64,000 bases of DNA, taken from contig OY843751.1 of NCBI GenBank assembly GCA_963693055.1, positions 2,656,001 to 2,720,000 on the forward strand. The letters run 5' to 3'. Source of the DNA: a bacterium (GTDB lineage Bacteria; Zhuqueibacterota; Zhuqueibacteria; Residuimicrobiales; Krinioviventaceae). Under the pieces are notes generated by a model. The model ran no database searches and was not told the DNA's origin. It saw only the letters and a program-made list of their open reading frames with translations. Below, piece after piece: positions 13,822 to 27,710 of this stretch (position 1 is the first letter of the stretch; the number at the start of each line of letters is the position of its first letter). Made by a program: the position numbers and the translations under genes.

Positions 13822-14205
13822 ATGTCCGACTATAAACCAACCGATTCAGAATTAGAGATTCTAAAGTTATTGTGGGAAAAAAGTCCCAGAACTGTACGGG
13901 AAATTAACAATCTGTTAAATCAAGAAAAAAAAGTGGGGTATACTACAACTTTGAAAATAATGCAGATCATGTATCAAAAAGGTTACCTCACAAGGACAAA
14001 GCAAGGCAAAGTTCATTATTATACGGTTTCTATTGAGCAACAAAAAACCCGTCAGGATTTATTAGACAAGCTTGTAAAAACCGCATTTGATGGATCATCA
14101 TTTAAATTGGTAATGCAGGCATTGGGTAGTGGAACCCGCTCTAAAAATGAACTGGATAAAATTCGTCAGTACCTTGATCAACTCGAAGGAGAAAACAATG
14201 ATTAA
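13822..14205 (+). CDS. BlaI/MecI/CopY family repressor
   Basis: PTDSELEILKLLW, TVREI, YTTTLKIMQIM..KG.L.R; overlaps start of M56 gene. Confidence 0.93.
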   Translation: MSDYKPTDSELEILKLLWEKSPRTVREINNLLNQEKKVGYTTTLKIMQIMYQKGYLTRTKQGKVHYYTVSIEQQKTRQDLLDKLVKTAFDGSSFKLVMQALGSGTRSKNELDKIRQYLDQLEGENND

Positions 14206-14990
14206 TACGAGTTTTATATCAACTCCCGTTACTCATGCAATCGGCTTGGCCTTGATTCATTCTATCTGGCAGGGAATATTAATTGGATTTTTGGCTGGTA
14301 TTTTTTTGGTTTTTATTAAAAATGAACGTCCGGAAATTAAATACAATATAGCTATTTCAGCTATGTTTTTCATGTTTATCACTTTTGTTGTTACATTTAT
14401 TATTTCATTTTATAATACCCATCATACGTCACAAATAATAACTCAAACTGCTAAAGTCCAGGTTTTTAATTCAACTCAAAGCATTATTCCAATCACTCCG
14501 AATGCTTTCACAATATTATTGATAAATGTTGAACCTTTTTTACCAATAATAACTATGATATGGTTAGTTGGAGTGCTTGCTCATATATTACAAATTTCAA
14601 AAGATTTGTTAAGGGTTCACTACCTGAAAACACGAAATATAAAAAGTGTTAATCCTGAATTAGCCAAAGTTTTTAATTTAGTTGCAAATCAGATGCGTAT
14701 TTTGAAAAATTTTCATGTGTTTGAATCTTCCAAAGTTCGAATTCCCATGGTTATTGGTTATCTAAAACCCGTCATTTTACTGCCTGCTGGCGTATTCACA
14801 GGTTTTTCAACCAAACAAATAGAATCTATCATTGCACACGAGCTTGCTCATATATTGAGAAATGACTATTTGATAAACATTATAATTTCTTTTATTAAAC
14901 CTGTGTTTTTTTATCATCCGGTTTTTTGGTGGTTTGTATCGATCATTGAACAGGAAAGAGAAAAATGCTGTGACGATAGGGCAATAACTG

Positions 14991-16430
14991 GAGTTATTGT
15001 CAATAGTTGTGGATCAAAAAGCGTATCCATTTCATAAAAGTTAAGCTGCCAACTTAAACAATTCCTGATTTTCCGGTTCACCATTCACAAATTTTTCTCC
15101 TTTAATCACAAATGGTATCCACTTGTACCCTCTCAAACGCCGCCACCGTTTTTCCGCTTCTTTAGCCAGTTTAAAAACCATAGTCAAAGTCGCCTGACTT
15201 GAACCGCAGCCCTTTGTTCTCCGCGTCCTGAGTCTCACTGTAGCAAAGGTAGATTCAATGGGATTCGTGGTCCGGATATGCTGCCAATGTGAATCCGGGA
15301 AATCATAAAAAGTAAAAAGTTGATCATAATCTTTTACCAGACAATTAACAACTTTGGGATACTTGTCTTCATAAATTTTGATAAATCTATGATAAGCGAT
15401 TAACGCATTTTCTTTGGTCTCAGCCATATACATTTCATGAATAAGCGATTTGGCATTTGTCTGCGCACTTTTCGGTAGCTTATCCAATATGTTGGCTGTC
15501 TTGTGGACCCAGCAGCGCTGTTCACGAGACTCGGGATAAACTTGTGGCAAAGCTTTCCAAAAACCGAGGGCACCGTCTGCGATTGCCAGTTTCGGTCCCA
15601 TCTCAAGTCCCTGGTCCTTTAACTCCAACAGCAGTTCTTTCCAGCTCAATTCGCTTTCTCGAAAGCCTTCTTTGACCGCCAAAAGCTCTTTTCGCCCATA
15701 TTCGTCCGCTCCAATAATCACTAAAATACAAGGATTTACGCCTTTCAATCGAACATTGAAATAGACACCATCGGCCCAGATGTATACATAGTGTTTGCCG
15801 GACAGATCACGCCTGGCCCATTGCTTGTACTCTGACTCCCATTCTTCTTTCAAGCGCACAACCGTGTTGGCTGAAAGTCCTTTGACTTTATCTCCAAGTA
15901 TAGCCGACAATGCAGCCGGGAAGTCCTGTGTCGAAATGCCCTTCAAATAAAGGGCAGGTATCAGGTTATTCAGGCTGGGTGTCCGTCTCAGGTATTTGGG
16001 TAGTATCTCACTTGTAAAGCCTTCTACGCCATGTTCCTGCCGTAATTTCCTGTCATCCACTCGCGGCTGCCGGATCGTTATTGGACCTGAACTGGACAAT
16101 ATTGTGCGCTCCGGCATGGAACCATTGCGTACGGCCAGGCGGTGACCTTGTTCATCTCTGTGATTTTTATAGCGATCAAGGTATTCCTGAACTTCGTTTT
16201 CTATGGCTGCTGCCAATATTTGTTGCGCTCCATTTCGAATAATTTCATCCAAACTTTTATTGAATGTTGTGGTTTCTGCTTGCAGTTCTGACTTTGTTGT
16301 ATTACCTTTTTTCATAGCGTGTCCTTTTTGGTTTTATCTTTTTTCTTGGTCGAAAAAAAATACTTAAAAACTATAGGATACGCTTTTTTATTTATTTTTT
16401 CAAGTCATCCACAACATTAGAATATAACTC
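14991..16430 (-). mobile_element. IS256-family insertion sequence (1440 bp)
   Basis: 24-bp imperfect IRs GAGTTAT-N8-GTTGTGGAT; 9-bp target duplication CAATAACTG at 14982-14990 and 16431-16439. Confidence 0.93.
15041..16315 (-). CDS. IS256 (Mutator) family transposase
   Basis: LYLKGIST, WADG, IADG, QRCWVHK, RTTNPIES DDE motifs. Confidence 0.96.
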   Translation of the reverse strand: MKKGNTTKSELQAETTTFNKSLDEIIRNGAQQILAAAIENEVQEYLDRYKNHRDEQGHRLAVRNGSMPERTILSSSGPITIRQPRVDDRKLRQEHGVEGFTSEILPKYLRRTPSLNNLIPALYLKGISTQDFPAALSAILGDKVKGLSANTVVRLKEEWESEYKQWARRDLSGKHYVYIWADGVYFNVRLKGVNPCILVIIGADEYGRKELLAVKEGFRESELSWKELLLELKDQGLEMGPKLAIADGALGFWKALPQVYPESREQRCWVHKTANILDKLPKSAQTNAKSLIHEMYMAETKENALIAYHRFIKIYEDKYPKVVNCLVKDYDQLFTFYDFPDSHWQHIRTTNPIESTFATVRLRTRRTKGCGSSQATLTMVFKLAKEAEKRWRRLRGYKWIPFVIKGEKFVNGEPENQELFKLAA

Positions 16431-16866
16431 CAATAACTGTTGTTTCTGATTCACTTTTGTACGCTCGCTCTCTGGAAAAATTGTATCAATTTAATTTAAC
16501 ATCTCCTTCCATTGCAATGACAGCTATTAAGAATAACAACCAGGTATTTAAACGGATAAAACGAATTACGAATCCTGTTGTAATGGAAAGTAACAGACTG
16601 GGAGAGACATTGCTGCTTACATTATTCATTATTGGTTTATGCATATTTTCTGCTAATGCTCAATCTGGAATTAATAATACCGATTCAACAAATCATTCAC
16701 AAAATGAAAACATCTCAGATTCACTATTACATAAAGATCTTTCTGAAACAATACCTGTGGAGAACAATGATAAATCAGAAAGCAATAATACTTGTAATGC
16801 TTATCTTTGAATTTGAGAAATGGGCCAAAATTATTAAATTAGATAAAACAGAACAAAGGAGGCCCA

Positions 16867-17172
16867 TTGAGTACCCGACAACGATTTACAGCCGAAGCCA
16901 AAGTACAGATACTACGTGAACATTTGGAAAATAATGTCAAGATATCCGAATTAGCTGAAAAATATAAAGTTCATCCTGGTGTGATCCAGCGATGGAAAAA
17001 AGAACTCTTTGAAAACGCACTTGATGGTTTTTCCGGCCAGCATAAAAATCGTAAAGATAAAACCCGCAAAGAAGAACAACTTGAGCATAAAGTGATCAAA
17101 ATGCAGGAAGTGATTACCGAGCTGTCAACAGAGGTGATTGATTTGCGAAAAAAGTATTTTGGGGCCCCCTGA
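16867..17172 (+). CDS. IS3-family OrfA (HTH)
   Basis: RQRFTAEAKVQIL, HTH with WKK, C-terminal coiled coil; AAGGAGG RBS before TTG. Confidence 0.9.
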   Translation: MSTRQRFTAEAKVQILREHLENNVKISELAEKYKVHPGVIQRWKKELFENALDGFSGQHKNRKDKTRKEEQLEHKVIKMQEVITELSTEVIDLRKKYFGAP

Positions 17173-17191
17173 AAGATCGTTGGGTAGCCCC
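17131..17191 (+). promoter_or_regulatory. Programmed -1 frameshift signal
   Basis: A-AAA-AAG at 17148-17154 in OrfA phase, SD-like GAGGTG at 17131-17136, downstream GGGGC...GCCCC stem; -1 frame open into OrfB. Confidence 0.85.
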
Positions 17192-17246
17192 TGACATACG
17201 CGATGACATTATCACTACATTTGACCGGTTAAAAACACAAACCCAT

Positions 17247-18140
17247 GTGCCAGTTAACACCTTGCTCAACGCGGCAGGATTATCGTGGGCCAGGTACCAT
17301 GACTGGCAAAAACGATTTGGACAACCCAATAGGCACAACAGCGATACGCCGCGCGACTTTTGGCTTGAGCCGTGGGAAAAACAGGCGATAATTGATTACA
17401 AAAAAGATCACATGGAAACCGGATATAGACGTTTAACCTATGAGATGCTGGATAACGACATTGTTGCCGTCAGCCCGTCAACAAGCTACAGGATATTGCG
17501 TCTGGCAGGCTTGACAAGTCGTTGGAATAACAAGACCTTAGAGGTAAAACGGAAAGGATTCGTGCAGCCAAAGAAACCTCATGAGCACTGGCACATGGAC
17601 ATATCCTATGTCAACTTTCATGGATCACACCTGTTTTTGATCTCTGTACTTGACGGATATTCCCGCTTTATTGTGCACCATGAGCTCAGAACACATATGC
17701 AGGAATACGATGTGGAGATCGTACTTCAACGGGCTCTGGAAAAATATCCGGACAAGACACCAAGGATCATTTCAGATAATGGCACCCAGTTCATTGCCAA
17801 CGATTTTAAATCCTTTTTGAGATTGAACAATCTGACACATGTACGAACATCGGTCAATCATCCACAAGCAAATGGAAAACAGGAAGCATTCCACAAGACA
17901 ATCAAAAATGAATGTATTCGTGTTAAAAGCTTTCTGGGTTTGGAGGATGCGAGAAAAATAGTTGCTGAATATGTTCATGAATATAACCATAAACGACTGC
18001 ATAGCGGCATAAACTATATCGCTCCGTATGATATGTTATGTGGCCGGGCTGAAATCATTTTCAAAGAACGTGATTTGAAACTTGAACAAGCACGACAAAG
18101 ACGAAAGGAAAAGGCACAACTTGAACGAAAAGCAGCTTAG
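17247..18140 (+). CDS. IS3-family OrfB (rve integrase-type DDE transposase), probably expressed as OrfAB fusion
   Basis: GYRRL, WHMDISY, LDGYSR, SDNGTQF, NGKQEAFHKTIK, YN..RLHS. Confidence 0.93.
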   Translation: MPVNTLLNAAGLSWARYHDWQKRFGQPNRHNSDTPRDFWLEPWEKQAIIDYKKDHMETGYRRLTYEMLDNDIVAVSPSTSYRILRLAGLTSRWNNKTLEVKRKGFVQPKKPHEHWHMDISYVNFHGSHLFLISVLDGYSRFIVHHELRTHMQEYDVEIVLQRALEKYPDKTPRIISDNGTQFIANDFKSFLRLNNLTHVRTSVNHPQANGKQEAFHKTIKNECIRVKSFLGLEDARKIVAEYVHEYNHKRLHSGINYIAPYDMLCGRAEIIFKERDLKLEQARQRRKEKAQLERKAA

Positions 18141-18583
18141 AGTTTTTTTTCGAATCCCTTCTCACAAGTGTTGGAAGGGTGAGGAGAAAAAACTCGGACT
18201 ATAACTTATTTTAAAGTGGCCTTTTCTCAAATTTTCCTTGAACCATTACAGTATTCGGAACTAGAATCAATACAATTGATTTTGATCAATTACATGAAAA
18301 TATATTACTCATGCAACAGCATTTAGATTCTGTTATGGTTAATAGTAAAGATTATGAGGCACAATTATCAATTGTACAGGATAAATTAAACGATCCTGAA
18401 TTTATGAAGCAAATAGAACTTGCAATTGAAAACGATCTTCAAAATGTTAAAATAGACACTCAGGTATTAGAGGAGAAAATAAAATCCCTAAATGAAGAAA
18501 AAATTAAAGAAATAAACAAAGCATTAAAAGAACTGAATCAATCAGTTGAAAATCAAGATAATGACTAAAAATATATATTTTTT

Positions 18584-24538: not shown

Positions 24539-25093
24539 TCATTTAGGTACTGGATGAGCTATAGTTTGCATAGCTGCTGCAAAATCCATTTCTTTATATG
24601 TAGGACTTTCAGAATTGTGACATTTTTTACAAGTTTCTGCAGTTGGTTCTACAGCTCCTACTGCTGCAAAATCTTGTGTGCCATCATACATGGCTTTCAT
24701 AACTTTTAATGATTTATAAAGCGAACCCGGTCCATGACAAGCTTCACAACTAATACCTTCTTCTATTGTCAAGGAGGCTTCTTTAACAGATGCAGGTTCT
24801 TCATAAGCAGTTACATGACACTTTAAACACTTTGGTGATTCCTGAGGATTTCCTTCAACTCCCACTTTTTTAGCTGCTGCTTTTGCTTCTTCTGTAGCAA
24901 GCACTTCATATGCTTTTGAATGCGGACCTTCCATCCAAACTTTTTGTTGGTTACCGCGTTTAGCACTTTTGTGGCATATGTTACATTTTTTTTCACCAAT
25001 GTATTTTGCCTGGTCTTTTTGTGCTGATACATGAGTTGTCAATAGTGTGAGGGCAAACACAGCACCTAAAACAACAATTATCGCCTTTTTCAT
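24539..25093 (-). CDS. Periplasmic tetrahaem cytochrome c (c554-like)
   Basis: Signal peptide; CNICH, CLKCH, CEACHGPGS, CKKCH; YIG..C, W...H..AY. Confidence 0.9.
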   Translation of the reverse strand: MKKAIIVVLGAVFALTLLTTHVSAQKDQAKYIGEKKCNICHKSAKRGNQQKVWMEGPHSKAYEVLATEEAKAAAKKVGVEGNPQESPKCLKCHVTAYEEPASVKEASLTIEEGISCEACHGPGSLYKSLKVMKAMYDGTQDFAAVGAVEPTAETCKKCHNSESPTYKEMDFAAAMQTIAHPVPK

Positions 25094-25164: not shown

Positions 25165-25295
25165 TTGTAGAATTTTTCACAGGTTGCTTGAAAAAAGTAC
25201 ATAATCTGCTTGATTTTATATGGATCTATGATTATCATTCTTTAGATACGCTGCTTTTTTATATAGATCTTTAAAAGTTGTGAAATGTTTATCAA
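25165..25295. promoter_or_regulatory. Two candidate Rex- or CRP/FNR-type boxes in divergent cytochrome promoter
   Basis: TTGTAGAATTTTTCACAG (25165-25182) and TTGTGAAATGTTTATCAA (25278-25295) versus TTGTGAA-N4-TTCACAA. Confidence 0.45.
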
Positions 25296-25457
25296 TATAT
25301 TGAATGTAATTAAAGTTGTTGAGACCACATTCATTTTTGGAGAAAACCATTGTTATATTTCGATTACAACATTCATTGGACATAATCAGCAATAAATGTG
25401 TTTCAATTTACAACGTACATTTGAATTGAATTAATCATTATAAATGAGGCTGTTGAA

Positions 25458-27263
25458 TTGTATAAGAAAATAATATTTATTCTGGTCGGCATTTCACTGG
25501 TCTTTATCGGTTGCTCAAACGATAAGGTACCTACGCCATCAACATCGCATCCTGAATCATGGACAAATGTTGGTAATGCAGATTTTCACGGAACCAAAGT
25601 TTTAACTTCAGGTCTTGTTTCTTGTAAATCATGCCATGGAAATGATTTTATGGGTGGTGATTCTAAAGTTTCATGTTACAGTTGTCATGAATCTTATCCG
25701 CATACCGATGTTTGGAATGTATTGGGATCAGATAATAATCATGGTGCCTTTGTAATTGACAACAATTGGGAACTTAATGCCTGTAGCAGATGTCATGGTA
25801 TGGATTATGAAGGTGGGAAAAGTGATATTTCTTGTTATTCCTGTCATGATTCTTATCCTCATTTTCCAACATGGACACTGTCTGAATCTGAACTGTTTCA
25901 TGGCAAGTATTTAAAAGCTCACGATTATACTGTTGGTAATTGTCAGAGTTGTCATGGACAGGATTATACTGGCGGTTCCAGCGAAACCTCTTGTTATCAA
26001 TGTCATGCCAATTATCCACATATGGATACCTGGATGGGTACAACCAATGCAAGCCATGGTTCTTTCATTCTTGCAGATGAAAACAATATTCAATCTTGTG
26101 AAACCTGCCATGGATCTGATTATGGCGGTGGTACCAGTGATGTTTCCTGTTATACCTGTCACCAAACATATCCTCACTTTGCATCCTGGAATGAACCCGA
26201 ATCTGATCAGTTTCATGGAAAATATGTAGAATCTGCAAATTGGAATGTTGAATCTTGTGAGTCCTGCCATGGTTATGATTATACCGGCGGAACTTCCAAT
26301 GTTTCCTGTTATACTTGTCATCAATCATTTCCACATAATGATAGCTGGCTAACAGAAACAGAAGATGGTCATGGTGCATTTATGAAAAATGCAAATTGGG
26401 CTGTAGAAAATTGTACAACATGTCATGGTGAAGATTTAGCAGGTGGTAGTAGTGAGGTATCCTGTTATACCTGTCATGAAACGTATCCGCATGATTCCGA
26501 GTGGATGAATATGGCTTCCAATGAATCTCATGGAAGTTTTGTAAAAGCCCAGGAATGGGATACACAATCCTGTCAAGCATGTCATGGCGAGGATCTGGCT
26601 GGTGGAACAAGTGACGTTTCCTGCTATACCTGTCATGAATCATACCCGCATGATGATACATGGTTAACTGCAACAGAAGAAGGGCATGGCGCATTTGTGA
26701 AAGCACTGGATTGGAACCTGGAAAGTTGTACAGCTTGCCATGGTGAAGATTATAAAGGAGGCAGCAGCGAGGTTTCCTGTTATACCTGTCACGAGTCTTA
26801 TCCACATCCTGAAAATCATGAATGGGTAGGCGGAACGGATGTGTCTCATGGTAAATATATTAAAACTCAATATTGGGATTTGTCTTCATGTCAGTTGTGT
26901 CACGGAGAGGACTATGCTGGTGGTTCAACAAACACCAGTTGTACAACTTGTCACTCGGGTGAACAAGGCCCGGAATCCTGTAATGTTTGCCATGGAAGTG
27001 GTTTTAATGCCGCACCTCCACAGGATTTAGCAGATCATTCTGAAACTACCTATTTGGGTGTTGGTGCACATCAGACACATATGGCAGTTTCTCCGTATTG
27101 TGAATTATGTCACCATCAACCTGAATCATTTGATGACCCGTTACACCTTGACGGGAATCTTCCCGCAGAAGTTAATGAAAATCTGCAATGGGATCGTGAA
27201 ACCGCAACCTGTGGTAATGTGTATTGTCACTCGGATGAAAATAGAGATTATACCTGGAATTGA
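25458..27263 (+). CDS. Multihaem c-type cytochrome lipoprotein (20 CxxCH + 1 CxxxxCH)
   Basis: FIGC lipobox; nine dihaem repeats plus C-terminal domain with GAH..H and CGNVYCH. Confidence 0.93.
   Translation: MYKKIIFILVGISLVFIGCSNDKVPTPSTSHPESWTNVGNADFHGTKVLTSGLVSCKSCHGNDFMGGDSKVSCYSCHESYPHTDVWNVLGSDNNHGAFVIDNNWELNACSRCHGMDYEGGKSDISCYSCHDSYPHFPTWTLSESELFHGKYLKAHDYTVGNCQSCHGQDYTGGSSETSCYQCHANYPHMDTWMGTTNASHGSFILADENNIQSCETCHGSDYGGGTSDVSCYTCHQTYPHFASWNEPESDQFHGKYVESANWNVESCESCHGYDYTGGTSNVSCYTCHQSFPHNDSWLTETEDGHGAFMKNANWAVENCTTCHGEDLAGGSSEVSCYTCHETYPHDSEWMNMASNESHGSFVKAQEWDTQSCQACHGEDLAGGTSDVSCYTCHESYPHDDTWLTATEEGHGAFVKALDWNLESCTACHGEDYKGGSSEVSCYTCHESYPHPENHEWVGGTDVSHGKYIKTQYWDLSSCQLCHGEDYAGGSTNTSCTTCHSGEQGPESCNVCHGSGFNAAPPQDLADHSETTYLGVGAHQTHMAVSPYCELCHHQPESFDDPLHLDGNLPAEVNENLQWDRETATCGNVYCHSDENRDYTWN
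25548..26954 (+). repeat. Intragenic tandem repeat, nine units mostly of 156-159 bp
   Basis: Anchor GTTTCCTGTTATACCTGTCA-like at 25668, 25827, 25986, 26142, 26301, 26457, 26616, 26772; outer boundaries approximate. Confidence 0.88.
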
Positions 27264-27285
27264 TTTTGAATAGGGGGAAATGCCT

Positions 27286-27710
27286 TTAAAGGCGTTTCCC
27301 CATTCCTATGACATTGTCGTCTTAATAACCCAAATGCTCATAAAAGGCAATTACATTTTTATTTGTTTTTCTAACCTGTAAATTAATTTTAGGACACCCC
27401 ATAGATTTAAGCAATTATTCTGCTGCTTGCATTAAGGCCTTACCGATACCTTGTTTCGGATGTGTAAGGGATACGGCAAGATAGTTGACCCAACCACGAT
27501 GACCTTCATAGCAAACCATTACTGAACCAGCCAAAACATCATTTATTACTGCTACTAGTATTCCTTGTGGATGATAAGCAATTTTCATATCTATGTCTTT
27601 ATCCGGATCATTCCAGGGAACGATCAATTCGCATTCCTTCCACAATTCAATAAGAGCATTTCTGTCATTTTCCTCATAGATTCTGATTTTAAATGGTTAT
27701 TATTCTTCAC
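27286..27710 (-). pseudogene. YpeA-like GNAT acetyltransferase pseudogene
   Basis: PWNDP, GHRGWVNYLAV; continues past TAA as LLKSMGCPKINLQVR...FYEHLGY*DDNVIGMGKRL; apparent 1-bp frameshift just after GTG start. Confidence 0.85.

Follow-up and report, generated by a model that had tools for sequence, protein, structure and literature searches.

The gene at 25458..27263 (+ strand) of the window, the 64,000-nucleotide stretch of DNA that we analysed, encodes a 601-aa multihaem lipoprotein built from tandem dihaem modules. In our reading, to which we give a probability of about 0.6, this protein is the outer-membrane terminal cytochrome of a porin-cytochrome (Pcc-type) conduit for electron export. 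The observations behind this reading are its sequence, its histidine count, its co-occurrence with a porin homologue, the gene order of relatives and a set of operator-like sites.

Nine dihaem modules and a three-haem cap

The initial annotation had described a lipobox cysteine, nine dihaem copies and three further haem motifs, and the sequence bears this out. The product carries 20 CxxCH motifs and one CX4CH motif (residues 585-591), and its only cysteine outside the haem motifs is Cys19, which follows a hydrophobic leader. The gene starts with TTG, with GAGG upstream at 25446-25449, and a predicted lipoprotein-type signal peptide (25458..25514, +) ends at Cys19, the predicted lipid anchor, which is invariant in 48/48 aligned homologues. 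None of these 48 has Asp at position +2 after the cysteine. The residues following Cys19 have a net charge of zero, as they do in 21 of the 48 homologues, and they do not fit the Bacteroidetes surface-lipoprotein signal, K-(D/E)2 or Q-A-(D/E)2 (PMC5080379, in excerpt), a rule that may not hold for this lineage. Surface location therefore draws no support from the sequence.

The modules follow the pattern H..W..HG..CxxCHG..GG..S-CxxCH and are 47-50 aa long (residues 31-77, 82-130, 135-183, 188-235, 240-288, 293-340, 345-393, 398-445 and 450-499). Departures from the pattern given initially are minor, namely a shorter spacer in module 1 and H-x5-W in module 9. Module 1 (25548..25688, +) is of a distinct N-terminal type and groups with the first modules of homologues, and modules 2-9 (25701..26954, +) measure 48-50 aa each, are joined by 4-residue linkers and alternate between 49 and 48 aa from module 3 to module 8. 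The 102-aa C-terminal cap (26955..27260, +) carries the last three haem motifs (two CxxCH and the CX4CH), with H538, H541 and H563 as candidate distal ligands. It is related to the CxxxxCH/CxxCH domain, at 18.9 bits against TIGR01904, under the curated cut-off of 27. Compared with the cytochromes of that class (TIGR01904, PF09698), the cap resembles a unit of which giant members such as P0122 (5264 aa) and P0123 (4309 aa) contain more than 20 copies, whereas the 601-aa protein has one truncated unit only and its nine modules are a different repeat.

The two non-motif histidines per module that had been noted were confirmed in 9/9 modules, and both of them, together with all six haem-motif residues, are invariant in 118/118 aligned modules from 14 proteins. 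In the cap, the 29 short-cap proteins compared have H538, H541 and H563 without exception, as well as the atypical motif (CX3CH/CX4CH), while H527 and H553 vary among them. The ledger for the whole protein thus sets 21 haem motifs against exactly 21 conserved spare histidines, enough for the bis-His ligation that we predict for its haems. Shorter natural relatives give a similar picture. Four-haem lipoproteins of about 135-150 aa stop just past their last haem motif, and in the one whose histidines were counted (L042) there are exactly four to spare. One-module dihaem lipoproteins also exist (L080-L082, L084). The boundaries seen in the nine-module protein recur in natural proteins of one and two modules, which confirms the module boundary. 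The source genome itself encodes a one-module paralogue (G000:C1:6063562-6063801; L043:8607-8801) whose signal peptide looks disrupted there and intact in the congener (L080:4360-4617), and similar proteins of 80-90 aa are found in L081, L082 and L084. Cytochrome c assembly genes (PF01578) are encoded in the source genome.

Several family labels were rejected. The Pfam and NCBIfam matches to c7, c3, MtrC, c550/c551, DnaJ and ExtN/O represent haem-motif noise. PF14522 (c7) scores above its cut-off (78 bits) through the haem motifs only, the repeat unit has two haems, and there is no PDB match. The match to PF22113 (MtrC/MtrF) is likewise limited to the haem motifs of a protein that has 21 of them and almost no beta structure in its model, in contrast to the decahaem MtrC/MtrF with their beta-barrel domains I and III. 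We found no description of the dihaem repeat in the openly available full texts searched; the supplements of PMC4245776 and PMC11492766 may hold homologues.

The full-length structure model has a mean pLDDT of 64.9 and a pTM of 0.26; a three-module model reaches pLDDT 80 and pTM 0.56 and shows the same short helices in each unit. Sequence searches with the protein or a three-module profile gave no convincing solved relative, Foldseek returned no match for either model, and VIA-align none with Z >= 2 for the three-module model. As the models were built without haems, the absence of a fold match does not show a new fold. Counting from the proximal histidine of one haem, the distal histidine of the next module comes five residues later; this spacing is our sole argument for a continuous haem chain.

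The repeat count is genuine and varies among homologues

The possibility that the repeat count is an assembly artefact was checked and rejected. At the DNA level the modules are 51-75% identical to each other, and Tandem Repeats Finder did not report them. The congener carries a 601-aa, nine-module copy that is 93-94% identical, and a further homologue (P0002, 606 aa, 56% identical) also has nine modules. The stretch is also covered in one piece, with 0 differences, by three contig sets that come from a single sample, possibly the source sample. A contig from another study, about 90% identical, runs across it as well and shows no indels in the coding sequence. A search for related loci on genome contigs returned the congener only, plus one spurious match.

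We then compared copy number across genomes, as the initial annotation had proposed, using searches at E <= 0.001 in which the best 120 of 614 and the best 150 of 1803 relatives were examined. Among the matches listed, it ranges from 1 to 16 modules: homologues sharing the architecture have 2, 3, 4, 5, 6, 8, 9 or 10, and variants with other C-termini have up to 14 (G047) or, by pattern count, 16 (P0128). The G047 homologue (L025:1985-11784; 14 modules, 32 haems) sits in a different cluster, its neighbours there being two tetrahaem genes and genes for an NHL-repeat protein, a barrel-like protein of 653 aa and a lipoprotein with 5 haems. Close relatives keep their arrays stable, module for module (G017 vs P0004). 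Distant lineages own separate module clades; in some of these, odd and even modules alternate, which points to blocks of two modules having been duplicated. In the protein-level tree, which leaves out five one-module rows, backbone support is weak (22-64), too weak for a count of independent expansions and splits.

Co-occurrence and gene order with a porin operon

That no porin gene is adjacent, as first reported, holds for the window, but a porin homologue is encoded elsewhere in the source genome (G000:C1:1145580-1146755). Among 61 related genomes, which are non-independent samples, the module gene was found in 34 and the porin in 38, and 23 had neither. All 34 genomes with the module gene also have the porin homologue; conversely, 4 of the 38 porin-positive genomes gave no match for the module gene. 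A close porin (E<1e-60) is present in 28 genomes, 27 of which have the module gene. In 19 of these 27 it comes immediately after the genes for the porin and the 12-haem cytochrome, in two the locus is cut by contig ends, and in six (G000, G001, G017, G037, G038, G042) it is separated from the porin pair. The usual operon in relatives runs from a UGA-split multihaem lipoprotein through a tandem rhodanese lipoprotein, a porin-like protein of about 395 aa and a 12-haem cytochrome to the module gene, which comes last. Metagenomes gave 42 porin loci, several of them near-duplicates; 12 were too short or had no 12-haem match, and in the 30 extending at least 340 nt beyond the best such match the module gene came next in 22 and was absent there in 8.

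The porin-like protein starts with a signal-like stretch, contains 19 or more amphipathic strand windows and has a conserved Trp at the C-terminus; the Atlas cluster nearest to it, 'Porin family protein' (0.99), is mostly from Calditrichota. The adjoining 12-haem cytochrome (G000:C1:1146759-1147643; 12 CxxCH) matches c7 repeats of the GSU1996/ActA type. No family model names the module protein, the porin-like protein or the 12-haem cytochrome, and NCBIfam gave no match over cut-off. Among the loci that the pattern caught, 11 have an in-frame TGA in the first gene of the operon and 2 have a Cys codon; gene callers would split that gene. Its product is a lipoprotein with 10 CxxCH and one CX3CH, and the UGA falls in an N-terminal EG-U-GG. 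The source genome has selA, selB and tRNA-Sec; a SECIS fold sought after the UGA was no better than in shuffles (z -0.5 and -1.5), and the protein has no match in NCBIfam or among solved structures. As this selenocysteine cytochrome was unfound or weak in 10 of the 27 genomes, the core consists of the porin, the 12-haem cytochrome and the module protein.

The source genome has the four other operon genes at G000:C1:1143077-1147643, with a strong hairpin at their end and no module gene, which lies about 1.5 Mb away. A lipoprotein cytochrome in the same cluster is thus absent in G000 and G001 and present in 19/27 related genomes. In the window, the module gene is divergent from a gene for a likely periplasmic, c554-like tetrahaem cytochrome (24539..25093, - strand; PF13435, E 9e-19). 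A c554-like gene is likewise found beside the porin operon in six loci from relatives (L033, L035, L036, L038, L047, L070), and the pair in the window may therefore be what was left behind when the porin pair moved. No coding remnant was found between the two genes. Directly 3' of the module gene's stop codon is a hairpin (27274..27301, +; z = -4.2), a likely terminator that has no clear T-run and was not called by a terminator scan.

Two-module forms, 135-150 aa long, stand in the module gene's place in the operon; this speaks against a fixed rod spanning the periplasm and weakens the periplasm-spanning role suggested initially. A copy with at least six modules is found within a full operon in G018 (L050).

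Other arrangements were also seen. In L041, L053, L054, L057 and L076, two-module copies accompany the selenocysteine cytochrome and the rhodanese but no porin, while G027, G031 and G035 also retain a six-module paralogue beside the porin pair. Several relatives encode, near the porin operon, multihaem proteins that are about 920 aa long and have a C-terminal sorting domain of T9SS type (L026-L030, L039). Elsewhere in the window, one peptidase gene, which we take to be M56/BlaR-like, is apparently split by two insertion sequences (15041-16315 and 16867-18140, within 14129-18568), and the congener counterpart of its C-terminal part is uninterrupted (L001:67-1092). A remnant of an acetyltransferase gene, presumably GNAT-like, lies at 27380-27700, where the congener has an intact 141-aa ORF (L001:9828-10253).

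Rex-type sites at both loci

Between the module gene and the c554-like gene lies a palindrome resembling a Rex operator (25278..25295), with 2 mismatches to the published consensus (PMC5317091, in excerpt) and 17 of its 18 bases kept in the congener. A second, weaker site (25165..25182; 3 mismatches) is identical in the congener and resembles the one before the porin operon, which has a single mismatch and could alternatively serve a divergent gene. Genome-wide, 69 sites have at most 2 mismatches. The 18 intergenic ones include the pair that precedes rex, the site described here, the site upstream of the porin operon and a site at a further multihaem locus. The boxes before rex and at that locus, between 7-haem and 19-haem cytochrome genes, were recorded at G000:C1:5906546, 1309380 and 1309473, and a second Rex-family gene lies near 4395600. 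The motif was spotted by eye ahead of testing, so the following figures are post hoc: none of 30 permuted palindromes matched both the module-gene and the porin-operon loci, and 0.65% of shuffles of the module gene's intergenic region contained such a site. These Rex-type matches suggest that the module gene and the porin operon share Rex control. A sigma-70 scan, with 18 sites against 12.8 expected, was uninformative.

Comparison with known conduits

Three components define Pcc systems: a porin of 18-22 strands, a periplasmic cytochrome carrying 5-14 haems, and an outer cytochrome that bears 1-15 motifs; examples are Geobacter OmbB-OmaB-OmcB and Ignavibacterium album IALB_1839-1837 (Shi et al, 2014, PMC4245776, in excerpt). 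Judged by its strand windows and C-terminal Trp, the porin-like protein would fall in this strand range, and 12 CxxCH motifs place its neighbour within the haem range. The layout in relatives has the same three parts, namely a small barrel, a periplasmic cytochrome (12 haems) and a lipoprotein cytochrome that includes an atypical haem motif. Distant porin homologues (L072-L074, L079) have immediately or shortly downstream a 14-haem cytochrome of 393-410 aa, the size given for IALB_1838 in the available part of its source, and module homologues occur in Ignavibacteria among the matches listed. The Ignavibacterium cluster, compared here by description rather than by sequence, may therefore be a distant homologue. 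In contrast to Pcc systems, the terminal subunit here is a tandem array of variable length whose gene is detached in the source genome, and it has 20 CxxCH against the 1-15 motifs of Pcc outer cytochromes (PMC4245776, in excerpt). The module protein likely works like a Pcc outer subunit, yet it lies outside the porin cluster in the source genome and matches no curated family.

Geobacter conduits likewise place a variable surface subunit beside a conserved porin pair (PMC6148476, in excerpt). The partner operon also resembles Geobacter ExtHIJKL/MccSep in joining a rhodanese lipoprotein, a porin and a multihaem cytochrome read through UGA (excerpts of PMC6148476 and PMC13510729). MccSep is described in the available part of PMC13510729 as a periplasmic pentahaem protein with Sec at residue 325, whereas the one here is a lipoprotein with the motifs given above; and ExtHIJKL, as far as PMC6148476 was available, has no outer cytochrome, unlike the present system. 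The dodecahaem 'nanowire of haems' GSU1996 (PDB 3OV0) is similarly a single chain of repeated small haem domains. Its domains are trihaem c7 units with His-Met haems in the periplasm, whereas the module protein has a 52-53-aa dihaem unit, all-His candidate ligands and a predicted lipid anchor, and we found no sequence or fold match between the two. Porin-cytochrome clusters and concatenated multihaem wires are already known in general: such wires are described in the available text of PMC11492766 and PMC10138318, and excerpts of PMC10732223 and PMC13264449 mention porin-cytochrome complexes in KSB1 genomes, with no detail of the module protein in those parts.

Proposed role and alternatives

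The haem loading, shape, surface location, porin-complex binding, direction of flow and acceptor of the module protein are inferred. In the model that we favour, electrons would pass from the quinol pool to a periplasmic carrier, possibly the divergent c554-like tetrahaem protein, and from there through the c7-like 12-haem cytochrome, held within a barrel of about 20 strands, to the module protein. This would in turn reduce the surface selenocysteine cytochrome and rhodanese, acting on sulfur or selenium species, or, in its long versions, might hand electrons straight to acceptors that are solid or distant. Every module would fold about its own pair of haems, with its own two histidines as ligands, and the five-residue histidine spacing would hold the haems in contact along the chain, so that reach would scale with repeat number. 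In the genus of the source the gene would have parted from the porin pair and yet kept an operon-like Rex-type box, in which case both loci would be induced upon NADH accumulation. Against a place at the tip of the conduit, the gene lies 1.5 Mb from the porin pair, its product has no recognisable export signal, and 8 of 30 metagenome loci are without it.

In an alternative that we consider unlikely, the protein is a wire facing the periplasm from either membrane that feeds the 12-haem cytochrome from inside, its long versions bridging the periplasm. No surface-export signal is recognisable in the module protein, and a periplasmic-type c554 gene adjoins it divergently. Haem chains measure 0.8-1 nm per haem. 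At that spacing 18-21 haems would come to 15-20 nm, near the average periplasm width of 17 nm (cited in the available text of PMC11492766). However, the four-haem versions of 135-150 aa in the same operon slot could not span the periplasm, the genes are ordered porin, periplasmic cytochrome, lipoprotein cytochrome, and where operons are split it is with the selenocysteine cytochrome and rhodanese lipoproteins that the two-module copies remain (L041, L053, L054, L057, L076).

We give still less credence to the idea that the nine-module copy, standing alone, is no longer part of the conduit and serves mainly as an electron store, or capacitor, or as partner of a different porin cluster. GSU1996 has been described as a capacitor (PMC10138318, in excerpt), and the long short-cap versions whose context could be seen (nine modules in G000/G001, ten in G017) are both detached from the operon. 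The source genome also holds other multihaem clusters that the protein could serve. One of these (G000:C1:3833811-3840065) has genes for proteins of 20, 28 and 10 haems, after which comes one for a 532-aa protein, possibly a barrel, with Phe as its last residue, and another large multihaem locus (G000:C1:2005664-2009431) includes a gene with 49 CxxCH. Against this, the window holds the sole full-length copy in a complete genome that retains an intact porin pair, the Rex-type box is common to the module gene and the porin operon, and the G018 copy, of at least six modules, lies within the full operon. Multihaem conduits are reversible. Still, an inward flow through the same conduit, with electrons taken up from Fe(II), sulfide or partner cells, strikes us as improbable: inward conduits exist (PMC6148476, in excerpt), but repression by Rex at low NADH/NAD+ fits an electron sink (PMC5317091, in excerpt), and the pairing of selenocysteine cytochrome and rhodanese resembles the reductive ExtHIJKL/MccSep.

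Within the reading as an export conduit, we tentatively propose a broader possibility, namely that this undescribed dihaem repeat is a genetically extendable wire. Lineages may have independently extended the tip of the conduit, which would have as few as 4 or more than 30 haems, and thereby set its reach, with short forms passing electrons to a surface selenocysteine-rhodanese sulfur reductase, long forms to minerals or other cells, and the 21-haem tip here made in trans under shared Rex control. If this holds, the natural series of 1-16 modules would allow tests of conductance against wire length. The export reading itself, if right, would add a type of conduit to a widespread, mostly uncultured lineage of Calditrichota/KSB1 type, an assignment inferred from homologue names, and would imply that this lineage respires extracellular sulfur or metals. 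Its small self-ligating haem module, with a natural range of lengths, would offer a handle on why some cytochromes grow by repeats and how far their chains conduct.
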